NCBI GenBank assembly: GCA_964016885.1
Contig: OZ024741.1
Span: 73,532,001 to 73,596,000 of the forward strand
DNA: 64,000 bases
Source: Eledone cirrhosa
Taxonomy: Eukaryota
Direction: 5' to 3'
The notes beneath the pieces are model-generated. The model had not been told where the DNA came from and searched no databases. It was given only the letters and a program-made list of their open reading frames with translations. This document shows, in pieces, positions 12,475 to 55,192 of the stretch (positions are counted from its first letter, which is position 1; every line of letters starts with the position of its first letter). A program made the translations under genes and the position numbers.

Positions 12475-13360
12475 GTGAGTGTAATTCTATGAGGTGTGTA
12501 TATGTGTACATTTGTGCTGTAGTATATATGTGTTTGTATGCGTGAGTGTTTGTGTGTGTTTTTGATTGTGGGCGTATAGAGTATAAGTGTTTGTGTATGT
12601 TTGTATGTGGGGTGTGTATCACTATGGTTATGTTTGCGTGTGGGGGATGTGTGTGAATGTATTTGAGAGTGAGTATGTGTGCGCGTCTGTGGGTATGTTC
12701 ATATATGTGTATGCAGGTGTGTAAGTGAGTGTGTGTTTATGCATCAACTTTAAGGTGTAAGAAACGTGTGTGTGTGTGTGTATACTGGTGTTGGTCATAC
12801 AAGAATTCTGTACACGATCAATAACCGGTCAAGAATCAGTTATTTTCTGAAAAGAAATATAAAGTCGCCTTCTAGAAGGAATTTGAGGGTTACGTGTGTG
12901 CAGAGGTATAGATATGTGTTGTGTTGTATATACGTGTGTTGAGAAAGTGACTGTGTATTGGTGAGGCGACTGAAGTTGTTTATGAAGGCAGACACACAAA
13001 CACTCACGCAAACACACAAACACTCACGCAAACGCACACACAAACACTCACGCAAACGCACACACAAACTGTTTTAACGGGGGTTCTAGCGATGAGTTTT
13101 CTCATTTTTATATGTATATATGTATGCATATATATATATATGTATGTGTATATATATATATCAACATACATTTATACATACTTATATATACATTTATACA
13201 GACACATTATATATATATATATGTGTGTGTGTGTGTGTGTGTGTGTGTGTGTGTGTGTGTGTGTGTGTGTGTGTGTGTGTGTGTGTGTGTGTGTGTGTGT
13301 GTGTGTGTGTGTGTGTGTGTGTGTGTGTGAGTGTGCGTGTATGTATTATAATTATATATA

Positions 13361-13540
13361 AAATGACTTCTACAGGACTAGAACTATTTCATTCATATTA
13401 AGATTTCATACGAATGAAAGAGTTCTAGTCCTGAAGAAGTCGTTTCTATATATAATAAAGATGTATATACTCTACCAACGTACTGAGTACCTTTGTAACT
13501 GCAGTTGCCACTTACACAACTGGGGAACTTACATATTATA
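13361..13540 (+). repeat. Short foldback (13361-13445) plus 3' tail with bulged hairpin; probable PLE pseudo-LTR remnant
   Basis: GACTTCTACAGGACTAGAACT ... AGTTCTAGTCCTGAAGAAGTC inverted arms, then AATAAA, then TACTC-TAC-CAAC-GTA-CT-GAGTA at 13468-13489. Confidence 0.6.
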
Positions 13541-13840
13541 CATACATACACATATACATATGTAATATGTATATATTAATAAGAGGAATTCCAACTTTGT
13601 CTGATTTACTCGTTTTATTTACAATCCTTTAAAATATATATAATACGGTATTATAATGAAATAGTATGATAGAATATTAAATTCTAAGTGTTAATTGAAC
13701 AAGTACTTTTTTTTCAACTTATCGTTTTCGGTATGCCTGACCGATTTAACTCACTCAATATGCAAATTAGGCTGCTCAGCCGTTAATTTTCATAAGGAAA
13801 GTATATACTTTCGAACGTTCAACTATCTGGCAGATGGGTA

Positions 13841-13885
13841 AACGGTGCTGATGATAGCTAACAAGCTTGAAACTAGTACATCGTT
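13841..13885 (+). ncRNA. Minimal type I hammerhead ribozyme
   Basis: Stem I AACGGTG/CATCGTT; core CTGATGA (13848-54); stem II AGCT-AACA-AGCT; GAAA (13869-72); palindromic stem III ACTAGT; cleavage triplet GTA. Confidence 0.85.
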
Positions 13886-14329
13886 CCTGTGTCAGTGTTG
13901 AACAAAAAGGTGACGTGGTTGCCTTAACACCGTATGGCATAAATCAGTCTGTTCGCTTGTTTACAAACGGACAAAGCGGGCGTTATAATAAACGTTCGCT
14001 AAACTGATACGTACATATATATATGTGTACCTGTATGCATATATATATATATATATATATATATATATATGCATGCTACTGTACGTCTGTATACATATAT
14101 GTATGTACGTATACATACATACTTACATTTAAGTAAGTGCCGTACTAAGAGTGAGAAATGAAATTTCGTTTCATTATATTGCAACTTATATATATATATA
14201 TATACACTTATGTATTTATATATATATATATACATATGTATATATATATATATATATATATATATATATATATATATATATATATATATATATATATATA
14301 TATATATATATATATATATTATATATAAA

Positions 14330-14612
14330 TGGAACCGGTAAGGTATATTACTTGAACCGATAAGGTATATTTTCTTGGTTATGTCAAAATTTATAAAACA
14401 AACTTTGTATTTTATCTGATGAAAGGGTACCAAAGTTTTGGTACCATTGAAATATATATATCATAGCATAAATATGGTTTTATAAATATAGTTTCCATTT
14501 ATTAAATATCATTGAATATTATACTCCAAAAAACTTGTAGAGTGCTCTGGATCAGTTATAAACATTTATATTTGTTGAATTACCAACAAATTGAATATCC
14601 CTTTTGCTTATA
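14330..14612 (+). mobile_element. PLE pseudo-LTR fragment (family also at 21851-22135 and 43440-43900) between (TA)n runs
   Basis: Shares AATATGGTTTTATAAATATAGTTTCCATTT and the downstream tail with the other two loci; contains a hammerhead and the bulged tail hairpin (14522-14544). Confidence 0.7.
14408..14470 (+). ncRNA. Minimal hammerhead ribozyme
   Basis: TATTTTAT-CTGATGA-AAG-GGTACCAAA-GT-TTTGGTACC-ATT-GAAA-TATATATA-TC-ATAGCATA; stem I has one mismatch. Confidence 0.7.
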
Positions 14613-15810
14613 TACTATATATATATATATATATATACGTACACACACAGAGACATATGTATGTGGGGTGGGGTTAATTAGACTATAGGTACAGATATTG
14701 ATCACAAAAAAAAATAAAAGCATTGACATTTACAACTATTCCAAAAGTTTATATGTACCGGAGAAAAATATTGACATACAAATACACATATATTGTATAC
14801 ATATAAATACACATGTATATATGTATATATGTATAAATGTATATATGTATGTATATATATATATATATATATATATATATATATATATATATATATATAT
14901 ATATATATATATATATATATATATATACATATATATATATACATATATAAATATATACACACACACACATACACACACATATATATATAAATATGTATTT
15001 TTATGTATGTAATATATATATATATATATATATATATATATATATATATATATATATAAACAGACGCAAATGAGAACATTTCCAGTTAAGGATCATACAA
15101 TTGTATTGGTGGAATAATAATAACATCATCAGGTTAGTTTTGACGCTACACAAAAAAGTAACAATAGAACTCGTTTCCCACTGACGTATCGTATTTGTCG
15201 GCCATGTTTGCTTTAGTTTTCCTTCGACACAAAATTTGTTTCAAAAGATAGGGAATTAACAATGTTGACATTAGAGTATTTGTGTTTTCTTGTTAAATGT
15301 GATACCAGTTCTCAGTTACCATTGTCTTTTTTTTTCTGTTGATTGTAAAGATGAATTTTTTATCACTTTATATGATATATTTGCTAATGTTATTGGTTAT
15401 ATAGATTTATACGCTCCGCCATTTTGCTAAAAAAATATTTGTATTGGAAGAATAAAACATCATCGATATGTTTTTTTTAACTCTGCATCTGAATACCGTC
15501 TTATTTACATTTTTGTTTTGTTTTGTTTTAATTTTTCTCATTCTTCTGATTGCTTTAAAAGTCTCTCTCCATTCTCTCTCTCTCTATATATATATATGCG
15601 TGTGTACGCGTGTGTGTGTGTGTGTACACATACCCCTTCTCTTATAAAAGAGAGCAAAAGAAAAAAAGTGATGAAAAGACATAAAGTTGCGACTGTGGGT
15701 ACATATATATATATATATATATATATATATATATATATATATATATATATATATATATATATATATATATATATATATATATATATATATATATATATAT
15801 ATATATATAT

Positions 15811-53800: not shown

Positions 53801-53834
53801 TCACCTGAAGAAGGGCTTATGCCCGAAACGTCGT
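53801..53834 (+). ncRNA. Minimal hammerhead-like motif
   Basis: CTGAAGA-A-GGGC-TTAT-GCCC-GAAA-C-GTC: intact core and stem II, but stem I is only 2 bp. Confidence 0.55.
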
Positions 53835-54023
53835 CCCCCACCTACCCCCCACTCTCTTGAGCGTGAATTTAATAAACATTTATCGTACTGCCTCTCTGTT
53901 CTGTCCCTGTTCAATTTTTCATTATATATATATATATATATATATATATATATATATATATATATAGTTAAGTATTTCCGAAGAAAAAAAACTAAGAGTG
54001 ATCTATGTATAAAACAGAGCTAT

Positions 54024-54112
54024 TTAATTAGAAAGTGAACACAATGTATAACTACTCCATTACCAAAGGTAATGGAGTAGTTATATATTGTGTTGTTCAC
54101 TTTCTAACTAAC
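54024..54112. repeat. Short palindrome with minus-strand tail hairpin (54000-54020)
   Basis: TATAACTACTCCATTACC-AAA-GGTAATGGAGTAGTTATA. Confidence 0.85.
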
Positions 54113-54634
54113 TAAATACACACACACACACACACACACACACACACACACACACATATATATATATATATATATATATATATATATATATATATATATA
54201 TATATAGTATTAAGGATACTATTTATGGTTATGTATATACTAAAACTTTTTATAGTTATATATATTTTAAACCCTAAACAGTGAAAGTCAGTAATTTCTT
54301 ACTAGCTTATTACCAGTAAGATAAATAGCTCAATGTAATAACATCAGTTGTTCTACAGAGCAGTTATATAGAATACACAGGAATCAAAGCTATGTTCAAA
54401 GCATTTATTAGCTTACAATTGTTTCATCCAATAATTTTTAATTTTGCATTGATGTTGTATTTTAATTTTTATTGTGCTTTGATCCTGTTTTAATGTGATT
54501 TTGTTTTTGAACTTAAATTGCCATTCAGAAATAATATAATACATGTCACCCCACTGTACATCAATATATACATATGTATCTGTATGTCTCTCGCGTTGCA
54601 AAGGAGGTCATGTATGTGTACAAACATTGAAAAA

Positions 54635-54681
54635 TGCTCCGAAGACTTCAAACCTCGGTTTGGATGAAACAATTGTAAGCG
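54635..54681 (+). ncRNA. Hammerhead with one core substitution (CCGAAGA), inside inverted repeat 54366-54432 / 54660-54725
   Basis: TGCT-CCGAAGA-C-TTCAAACC-TC-GGTTTGGA-T-GAAA-CAATTG-TA-AGCG; palindromic stem III ACAATTGT. Confidence 0.65.
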
Positions 54682-55192
54682 AATAAATGCTTTGAACATA
54701 GCTTTGATTCCTGTGTATTCTATATATATATATATATATATATATATATATATATATATATATATATATATATATATATATATATATATATATATATGTA
54801 TATATATATATAAATATATATATATATATATATATATATATATATATATATATATATATATATATATATATATATATATATATGTATATATATATAATAA
54901 TAATAATAATAATAATAATAATAACAATAATAATAATAAGGATTTCTTTATTAACCACAAGGGTTTACATAAAGTAGGCATTAAGGACAGTACAGGACAA
55001 TACAGGGCGGTACAAATGGGCATTTCTGCGTGCAAAAAAAACAAGAAACAGAGGATGTAATAATAGAACAATGAAAAAATTCCCCAATAGCGGGGAGACT
55101 TCCGAGGGACATTCGTGGAGAAAGCCCATTAAAAAGCCACAGTGACCCTGACCACAAAGGCAAGTGCCTTCTCCCAGTTTTCCACCTTTAAT

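Follow-up and report, generated by a model that had tools for sequence, protein, structure and literature searches.

The 3′ ends of Penelope-like elements (PLEs) of the Hydra clade and of their hammerhead passengers were analysed in a 64,000-nucleotide stretch of the Eledone cirrhosa genome (assembly GCA_964016885.1, contig OZ024741.1, positions 73,532,001 to 73,596,000, forward strand; hereafter the window, in whose own numbering coordinates are given), together with loci found by genome-wide searches. The ends fall at two sharp sites, each a few nucleotides 5′ of a bulged hairpin. With a probability of roughly 70%, we read each of these tandem hairpins as a binding signal that would start target-primed reverse transcription at a TA about 5–9 nucleotides 5′ of it.

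Two sharp end sites

The junctions are genuine 3′ ends of PLEs, mostly of the Hydra clade. In a near-complete copy of family A and in 20 loci of family M, the element is arranged as a truncated pseudo-LTR (pseudo-long terminal repeat), a hammerhead core, site 1, hairpin 1, a tail, site 2, hairpin 2, the ATG, the open reading frame (ORF), a 3′ untranslated region (UTR), a hammerhead core and (TA)n joined at site 1 or 2. Site 1 lies 5–9 nucleotides before hairpin 1, and site 2, the tail end, 6–12 nucleotides before hairpin 2. The tail, the stretch between these two hairpin-adjacent sites, measures about 60 to 165 nucleotides depending on the family.

All eight junction pairs of the first-pass annotation, which had described repeat arms stopping in (TA)n just 5′ of a bulged hairpin, were located at the given positions or within a few bases, and their partner arms, inverted or direct, were verified by self-comparison of the window. 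The description holds for seven of them. Site 1 is the end point at 43900, 21851, 25010, 51414, 54725 and 45251, where the modal offset of the family from hairpin 1 is −7, −8, −7, −5, −9 and −6 nucleotides, respectively; 16724 is a site-2 end, located before the second hairpin of family B (site-1 ends of B are at 15810 and, with a very short arm, at 51408). The eighth, at 31421 in family D, is sharp, but no bulged hairpin of the Hydra-type design follows it. At 13345 (family H) a hairpin is present at 13469–13488, and the ends of the family are scattered over about 15 nucleotides, as judged by eye.

Further copies were collected with junction-based genome searches, in which the DNA upstream of the junction served as query, so that the tail had no influence on the choice, and the 30 top loci per family were kept. 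An unselected sample consisted of 72 evenly spaced 10-kb regions (720 kb). For family M, a protein search was followed by hand-picking of 20 loci, mainly on long open frames. A first, tail-biased search is excluded from the end counts and from the 109 inverted pairs described below, and included in the (TC)n and stub counts. With end-class windows fixed post hoc from the histograms, 450 of 517 copies from ten families end at the two sharp sites (243 at site 1 and 207 at site 2); 37 read through and 30 end elsewhere, at least seven of these 30 belonging to a diverged E subfamily and several being broken by other insertions. The unselected regions contain 31 site-1 ends, 24 site-2 ends, three read-through copies and five other ends. 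In the family M loci, the ten read-through copies all lead into the ORF and the 22 ends are divided equally, 11 at each site; full-length ORF copies have site-1 ends as frequently as site-2 ends. The earlier proposal that the tail is copied only in the internal or inverted arm is contradicted by the 207 copies that join (TA)n at the tail end, for example the direct copy at 14326–14612; ends with the tail are joined to (TA)n no less often than ends lacking it.

Modal offsets are −5 to −9 nucleotides in 13 of 14 family-site pairs and −12, measured from the TC run, at site 2 of family B. Five families have a reference containing both hairpins; in these, 227 of 237 microsatellite junctions (58/62, 35/35, 28/30, 51/52 and 55/58 per family) lie at most 14 nucleotides 5′ of a hairpin, a limit chosen after the data had been seen, against 29 of 92 TA dinucleotides (binomial p = 4e-99, given independent junctions). 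A broad spread of junctions, or ends explained by the nearest TA, had been named as signs against a role of the hairpin; the junctions are narrow, and neither the nearest nor the longest TA patch explains them. It is true that each site has at least one TA, as would be expected if ends fell wherever the RNA has TA microhomology to the target. However, 63 of the 92 TAs lie outside the hairpin windows and take at most 10 of the 237 junctions. The 9-nucleotide TA patches of hammerhead stem III and of the tails in families C and G have no (TA)n junction (one A record and seven E records at such patches represent another insertion and the diverged E subfamily, respectively), and single-TA sites are heavily used. 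Because the longest TA patches are unused and junctions cluster at hairpins, TA microhomology alone fails to account for the ends; nor can it yield the asymmetric pairs described next. It is refuted as sole cause, and we consider it hardly credible.

Pairing of ends in inverted insertions

Many insertions are near-perfect palindromes with a spacer of a few nucleotides. A site-1 end is combined with a site-2 end in 106 of 109 inverted insertions, where 54.5 would be expected with independent ends, a pattern pointing to twin priming. Two of the three exceptions turned out on inspection to be misclassified (two separate insertions and a read-through, respectively), and one more symmetric case is present in the tail-biased set. 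In the unselected sample, all 16 inverted insertions pair site 1 with site 2. Another 260 ends include 36 with a short inverted stub, 35 of which are of the opposite type (one insertion being counted from both ends), against 0 of 213 in a wrong-family control. The inner spacer could be assigned to one arm in a minority of cases and is ambiguous in 35 of 50 pairs. When 112 inverted insertions were compared with possible empty sites, eight gave any match; one (L199 against L302, 88–89% alike), in which the TA run is short, resembles an empty paralogue, and this result is too weak to bear on the origin of the (TA)n.

The palindromes would also be formed if site 2 were the sole start and the first cDNA folded back and copied itself, its second strand stopping at site 1, or if self-priming took place on an antisense template, as has been proposed for rotifer Penelope elements (PMC3846280). 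Many of the palindromes are indeed near-perfect, with short spacers. Against this, the long arm may be of either class, which excludes simple fold-back from site 2. A fold-back arm cannot exceed the length of its template, and long site-1 arms exist: full-length ORF copies with a site-1 end are present, some with merely a short inverted site-2 arm (L263, L264, L270 and L449), and the main ends accompanied by stubs are 18 of site 1 and 17 of site 2. Fold-back is thereby largely refuted and appears highly unlikely.

The twin hairpins and their conservation

Hairpin 2, of the same design as hairpin 1, is located just behind the tail end in read-through copies of families A, A2, B, F, I, M and one further family. 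It was never found at a genomic 3′ end, its position always being upstream of the ORF. Related elements with 37–51% protein identity were searched for in metagenome sequences; of 78 loci, the 49 in which the match begins in the first eight residues were used, and 45 of these have at least 130 nucleotides upstream. Only the outer stem was fixed in the motif search, and the inner pairs were scored afterwards with bulges of 0, 1 and 2 nucleotides. Of the 45 loci, 23 contain two motifs, 11 contain a single one and the other 11 are without any; for comparison, 345 ORF windows gave 15 hits. With a 2-nucleotide bulge, 53 of 56 unique motifs have a first inner pair of Watson-Crick type; if the bulge is set to 0 or 1 nucleotide, the number falls to 0 and 1, respectively. 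The 2-nucleotide bulge begins with T in 55 of the 56. Inner pairs 1 to 3 are of Watson-Crick type in 53/55, 37/54 and 27/45 motifs (one overlapping spurious match having been removed), against means of 29.2, 15.9 and 11.8 in shuffles that ignore relatedness; the observed values are beyond all 20,000 shuffles. The GAGCAC of the 3′ arm is nearly invariant, and TA peaks 6–8 nucleotides before the stem. Of 12 metagenome (TA)n junction records, eight, from seven loci, sit 6–13 nucleotides before a hairpin, and four resemble TA patches inside continuing sequence (two of these four were checked). In L383, L396, L403 and L404, an apparent third, degenerate hairpin is located between the hammerhead and hairpin 1.

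Starts could instead be set by another nearby feature, such as a GAGCAC-type motif or the distance to the hammerhead or the ATG, with the hairpins serving translation control or RNA packaging. The near-invariance of GAGCAC would suit this, as would family D, which behaves alike without the hairpin. However, the distance to the 5′ stem edge stays at 5–9 nucleotides despite loops ranging from a few to 65 nucleotides, something that a linear distance from GAGCAC cannot give, and the tail length between the sites differs between families. The non-coding families B and C also retain the hairpin, and a different positioning feature is quite unlikely.

Runs of (TC)n at the ends

At site 2 of family B and site 1 of family G, the template contains TC directly before the TA patch, and in-register (TC)n of 3–46 units is present at 12/20 and 10/25 ends, respectively; this total of 22 in 45 compares with 2 in 429 at other sites. 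In each of the ten inverted cases that are informative, the opposite flank begins with (TA)n. As the other flank starts in this way, a (TC)n derived from the target would require a TA-TC-TA array cut at the boundary; the 720 kb contain none, and of their 3440 strand-counted (TA)n runs, 86 come after (TC)n. Slippage at the start of reverse transcription is probably the simpler reading of these runs.

The runs also bear on the possibility that the ends are made by endonuclease resolution. In this case a longer cDNA would be synthesised before the GIY-YIG endonuclease, reading the hairpin as DNA, cuts this cDNA at the adjacent TA and attaches it to the target. The tail was considered by Craig et al. 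(PMC8557442) as most likely to result from endonuclease-mediated resolution, and Frangieh et al. (PMC11167929) reported that the D. virilis tail is needed for endonuclease recognition. The hairpin would fold in single-stranded DNA too, and the motif search does not distinguish the strands. In PAc, a Poseidon element from Anolis carolinensis studied by Frangieh et al. (2024), the tail limits were mapped as reverse transcriptase (RT) start sites, though, and in-register (TC)n at a template TC fits a slipping polymerase start, not cut-and-join. Resolution also requires a first primer of unspecified source, and is unlikely.

Two other kinds of flanking repeat were seen. In the flanks of L358, L359 and L261, repeated (TA)n blocks are interrupted at regular steps by AG or TG, which may represent template restarts or later slippage. 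Short element-end pieces in many tandem repeats are present in L173 from 1652 (a family D end) and in L037 at 1627–2023 (a 28-bp unit of family A), suggesting repeated template jumps.

A possible course of initiation

If the hairpins are start signals, the GIY-YIG domain would nick both strands of a (TA)n target, and two RT active sites, one per hairpin, would each take one nicked strand as primer, giving a site-1 arm without the tail and a site-2 arm with it. The two cDNAs would then meet or switch onto each other, resulting in head-to-head arms of any relative length. The primer would pair with only 2–5 nucleotides of template and could slip, giving (TC)n where the template is UCUAUA. On the template, the hairpins would follow the 3′ UTR. 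The template would most simply be a monomer cut by the hammerhead and closed into a circle, the alternative being a tandem read-through RNA; one of these two would be needed because hairpin 2 must lie 3′ of the copied region yet is found only upstream of the ORF. A circular template for PLEs has been proposed by Cervera and de la Peña (PMC4209133). In family M, the pseudo-LTRs within seven elements are 0.968–0.994 identical and the mean between elements is 0.926; several of them are matched equally well by another copy, so that a circle and a young tandem donor are not separated.

In a wider form, which we put forward tentatively, a clade-wide twin-hairpin RNA would dock two RT sites at fixed distances, and the two (TA)n strands would be primed at two internal sites of one circular RNA. 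The pseudo-LTR, the inverted copy and the tail at one end could then all be explained by a single geometry, and the RT may stutter at the start and thereby write part of the flanking (TA)n and (TC)n, which to that extent would be a product of the element and not its choice of target.

A number of observations weigh against the hairpins as start signals. Position and conservation do not in themselves demonstrate that they cause the start position, which is inferred from genomic footprints. The offset differs between families (5–12 nucleotides), microhomology blurs each junction by several bases (family F has modes at −7 and −14) and the ends of family H are spread. Many insertions show no second primed end: 177 of the 260 unpaired ends have no inverted stub, and 47 have no upstream microsatellite in which one could be sought. 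Family D has two sites and 10/10 asymmetric pairs without the Hydra-type hairpin, and no read-through copy of D was found; because D follows the pairing rule, the two-site mechanism is wider than the motif, and the Hydra-type hairpin is clade-specific. Hairpin 2 can be seen only in a read-through copy, of which there is none for E, G and H, and in the C read-through the descriptor finds no second hairpin. In the metagenome set the reverse strand gives 16 hits in 45 windows, the stem being nearly palindromic, so the motif search does not fix the strand; pair 1 largely splits by hairpin 1 (T-A) and hairpin 2 (C-G), possibly a single old change, and relatedness is left out of the shuffles. The targeted samples, being the best 30 matches per family, are mostly young copies. 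Sites whose template would permit (CA)n or (TG)n stutter show none (0–2 per site). Finally, PAc worked in vitro without hammerhead cleavage (PMC11167929), which does not favour a circle.

The first-pass annotation had the hairpin set the start of target-primed reverse transcription. The placement just 5′ of a hairpin bears this out, and the internal starts of PAc are a precedent; that there are two sites and two hairpins had been missed, and the causal step keeps the qualification given above. Its comparison with template-boundary or epsilon elements is a loose one, as the hairpin, located 3′ of the start, is outside the stretch copied from there.

Identity of the elements

L261 contains an intact, young family M ORF of 712 amino acids. 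RWK replaces GxKF/Y (RMRWK at residue 35; present in 109 of 120 homologues, with R.RW also in families A, A2, F and I), and DKT replaces DKG (residue 114; also in A, A2 and F). These are followed by YRDD, by the CxCX5C motif CSCRIKSEC at 555, by a GIY-YIG-like pair (IVY...YVG, residues 574–596) and by CTLC at 658 (CxxC) and CPH at 689 (CxH); the three cysteine motifs are found in 118, 119 and 116 of the 120 homologues, respectively. The GIY-YIG-like pair is located carboxy-terminal to the RT and has no cysteine between its halves (no CCHH), the endonuclease assignment being based on motifs. RWK, DKT, CxCX5C, CxxC, CxH and insertion into (TA)n are marks of the Hydra clade, which includes the octopus family Hydra-1_Obim (Craig et al. 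2021, PMC8557442). As the motifs of L261 equal these marks, the ORFs are assigned to the Hydra clade. Insertion into (TA)n is seen across families, and read-through copies of A2, F and I continue into Hydra-type ORFs. No ORF-linked copy was seen for families E, G and H, for which the hammerhead-hairpin layout is the common ground.

The predicted fold of L261 (pLDDT 89) has as its best structural match the fungal telomerase reverse transcriptase (TERT) 6zdq, with an E-value of 2e-9 and a modest TM-score of 0.37. A Pfam scan of the ORF pieces, the intact ORF and four homologues gave nothing apart from two chance matches, and a sequence search of the PDB with the ORF gave no useful match. Hammerhead cores (CTGANGA...GAAA) with their stems are present in the pseudo-LTRs by pattern match, and cleavage is predicted. 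Rfam gave no match at gathering score on 11 loci; on the window, among the 150 matches listed of 198, there were only sub-threshold microRNA-type matches to palindromes and microsatellites. The labels Naiad and Nematis, from an early reading of the motifs, were dropped, the Hydra description fitting instead: a Naiad PLE would have an amino-terminal endonuclease and no canonical hammerhead, whereas here the RT motifs start the ORF, the endonuclease is carboxy-terminal and hammerheads are present.

Family D encodes, by translation, a protein of a different PLE type, with a YVDD RT, a cysteine-rich linker and VVY...YIG; it may be a Neptune PLE, a type with a carboxy-terminal GIY-YIG and a CX2-5CxxC linker. 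Families B and C consist of tandem type I hammerhead units without a long ORF, B having a period of 543 bp and C a spacing of about 486 bp. They are likely to be non-coding passengers of Hydra-clade PLEs, similar to non-LTR retrozymes, to judge by their sequence.

Elements in the window

The PLE ends and fragments of the window are as follows.

43439–43899, both strands: family A2 fold-back insertion; the plus arm ends at site 1 (43899/43900), the minus arm contains hairpin 1 and the tail to site 2 (43439/43438), with (TA)n on both flanks
43502–43521, minus strand: A2 bulged hairpin 1 (ACTC, 4-bp inner stem, TC bulge, GAGT)
43801–43842, plus strand: A2 hammerhead core CTGAGGA...GAAA with palindromic stem III, by pattern match; mirror copy at 43586–43627 (minus)
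21851–22133, both strands: family A inverted insertion; the minus arm ends at site 1 (21851), the short plus arm contains hairpin 1 (22048–22068) and the tail to site 2
14326–14612, plus strand: family A direct, 5′-truncated copy with hammerhead core (14416–14452), hairpin 1 (14523–14543), tail and site-2 end in (TA)n
15811–16725, both strands: family B, 543-bp non-coding hammerhead unit in partial tandem, with an inverted arm; it ends at 15810 (site 1) and 16725 (site 2), and contains hairpin 1 at 16077–16100 and 16621–16644
16194–16218, plus strand: family B hairpin 2, within the read-through (internal) unit
25011–25894, both strands: family F inverted insertion; the minus arm (hammerhead core 25066–25112) ends at site 1, the short plus arm contains hairpin 1 (25811–25835) and the tail to site 2
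51418–52315, minus strand: family C non-coding hammerhead unit, direct partial tandem, ending at site 1; hairpin 1 (GTTC/GAAC variant) at 51848–51883 in the internal unit
50969–51408, both strands: inverted insertion similar to family B, ending at site 2 at about 50969, with hairpin 1 at 51054–51077 (minus) and a short plus arm to site 1
54206–54720, both strands: family G inverted insertion; the plus arm ends at site 1 (54720/54721), the minus arm contains hairpin 1 (54328–54361) and a tail of about 165 nucleotides to site 2
45254–45669, both strands: family E fold-back insertion; the minus arm ends at site 1, the plus arm contains a hammerhead core (45477–45513), hairpin 1 with a long loop (45582–45621) and the tail to site 2
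31423–31985, both strands: family D fold-back insertion; site-1 and site-2 ends 58–60 nucleotides apart, hammerhead cores at 31579–31607 (minus) and 31739–31767 (plus), ORF of the other PLE type
13345–13530, both strands: family H small fold-back insertion with hairpin 1 at 13469–13488; an older family with more spread ends
45690–45811, plus strand: family I end with hairpin 1 (45738–45761), tail and site-2 end; second copy at 35353–35435, hairpin at 35364–35387
47399–47935, minus strand: broken Hydra-type RT fragment with a YRDD motif (tblastn E-value 4e-15 to the family A RT)
62399–63083, plus strand: broken Hydra-type fragment of thumb, linker and endonuclease

Outside the window, hairpin 2 and the start of a Hydra-type ORF are present in the A2 read-through copy L274, and hairpin 2 and a Hydra-type ORF are visible in L282/L450 for family F and in L198/L451 for family I. 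Families K (47991–48351) and J (30245–30870), seen in window copies outside the genome-wide sampling, are inverted insertions with a tail on one side only; the K tail is about 35 nucleotides long and lacks the Hydra-type hairpin, and one K copy (L074) ends in in-register (TC)n. Other families contribute additional short hammerhead cores and a single further bulged hairpin of this design, at 24706–24729, 31239–31262, 53805–53828 and 52404–52429 (minus).

The first part of the window (1–12344) is a large tandem array of a 63-bp unit, with about 196 copies, 96% matches, a 21-bp sub-period and long open frames on both strands. Copies of long interspersed elements (LINEs) with remnants of APE endonuclease, RT and ORF1 are found at 55193–60126 and 37800–42830 (both minus); from their motifs we take them to be of L1/Tx1 type. 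LINE ends of the RLE type, presumably R4/Dong-like, are located at 61076–62398 and 17795–18780 (both plus), followed by (TAA)n or (AAC)n repeats. A 185-bp repeat resembling a short interspersed element is present in at least six copies at AT-rich sites (24516–24702, 27435–27617, 28377–28555, 29116–29300, 49410–49588 and 50565–50748), and breaks up PLE ends at other loci. A palindromic element resembling a miniature inverted-repeat transposable element (33462–33774) adjoins a transposon remnant (33775–34625), presumably Tc1/mariner-like.

Comparison with known systems

The elements share with the Hydra clade, as described in PMC8557442, the single ORF of about 710 amino acids, the carboxy-terminal GIY-YIG-like domain, the pseudo-LTR hammerhead, insertion into (TA)n, partial tandems, an inverted 5′-truncated copy and the one-sided tail. 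Inverted copies, and a tail that is often present at one end only, are already known from that paper, which gives a tail of 30–40 bp; here, tails of about 60–165 nucleotides are bounded by hairpin-adjacent sites. Our elements measure about 3.5 kb and have a long 3′ UTR, compared with less than 3 kb there. The word hairpin is absent from the main text of that paper.

For PAc, it was shown in vitro that target-primed synthesis starts internally, in a stem-loop (PMC11167929), and the protein is predicted to be a dimer. PAc has features that our elements would share: two internal RT starts that bound a tail, cutting and extension of both strands, AT-rich targets, starts downstream of the hammerhead and a requirement for RNA 3′ of the starts. 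The PAc starts are in a stem-loop rich in AC, inside the ORF, and have no homology to the target, whereas here they lie in the 5′ UTR, 5′ of two bulged hairpins, with a short TA match. In the available portions of that paper, no twin motif, offset rule or count of end pairing was found. The genomic footprint in Eledone, with its putative start sites, would match two-site initiation of the PAc type. Internal two-site initiation is already published for PAc, and the twin motif, the fixed offset and the pairing rule would be new here. In the literature searched, which leaves aside subscription journals and Repbase entries, no twin bulged hairpin, offset rule, end-pairing count or stutter was found for PLEs.

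Families B and C resemble metazoan non-LTR retrozymes (PMC7229834; bioRxiv 10.64898/2026.07.22.740005) as non-coding hammerhead partial tandems with PLE-style insertion. Their units exceed the 150–450 bp given in PMC7229834, and they bear the Hydra-type hairpin, a candidate cis signal for borrowing the PLE enzyme.

A further likeness is to telomerase: in addition to the fold match to TERT, the fixed offset and the (TC)n stutter resemble internal-template placement and repeat addition. In telomerase, the internal template is positioned by RNA structure, repeats are added by realignment and a template-boundary element limits the 5′ end of copying. PLEs differ in being copied processively after the start, in having the hairpin 3′ of the start and in stuttering only occasionally. 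In twin priming of L1, both target strands prime cDNA, leading to an inversion. The internal position at which the second L1 primer anneals varies, and its arms are free of overlap; in our elements the two starts have fixed positions and the arms are copied from one common region.

How PLEs come by their pseudo-LTRs, inverted copies and one-sided tail is named as an unanswered question in PMC8557442, and activity in vitro has been achieved with just one PLE (PMC11167929). The covarying motif, the fixed offset, the intact L261 ORF and the pairing of ends in 106 of 109 insertions give exact predictions for target-primed reverse transcription in vitro. The hairpin motif is a marker with which to find Hydra elements and the non-coding passengers that they mobilise. 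The stutter, if true, would mean that a sister enzyme of telomerase occasionally adds repeats, and may seed microsatellites in this repeat-rich genome.

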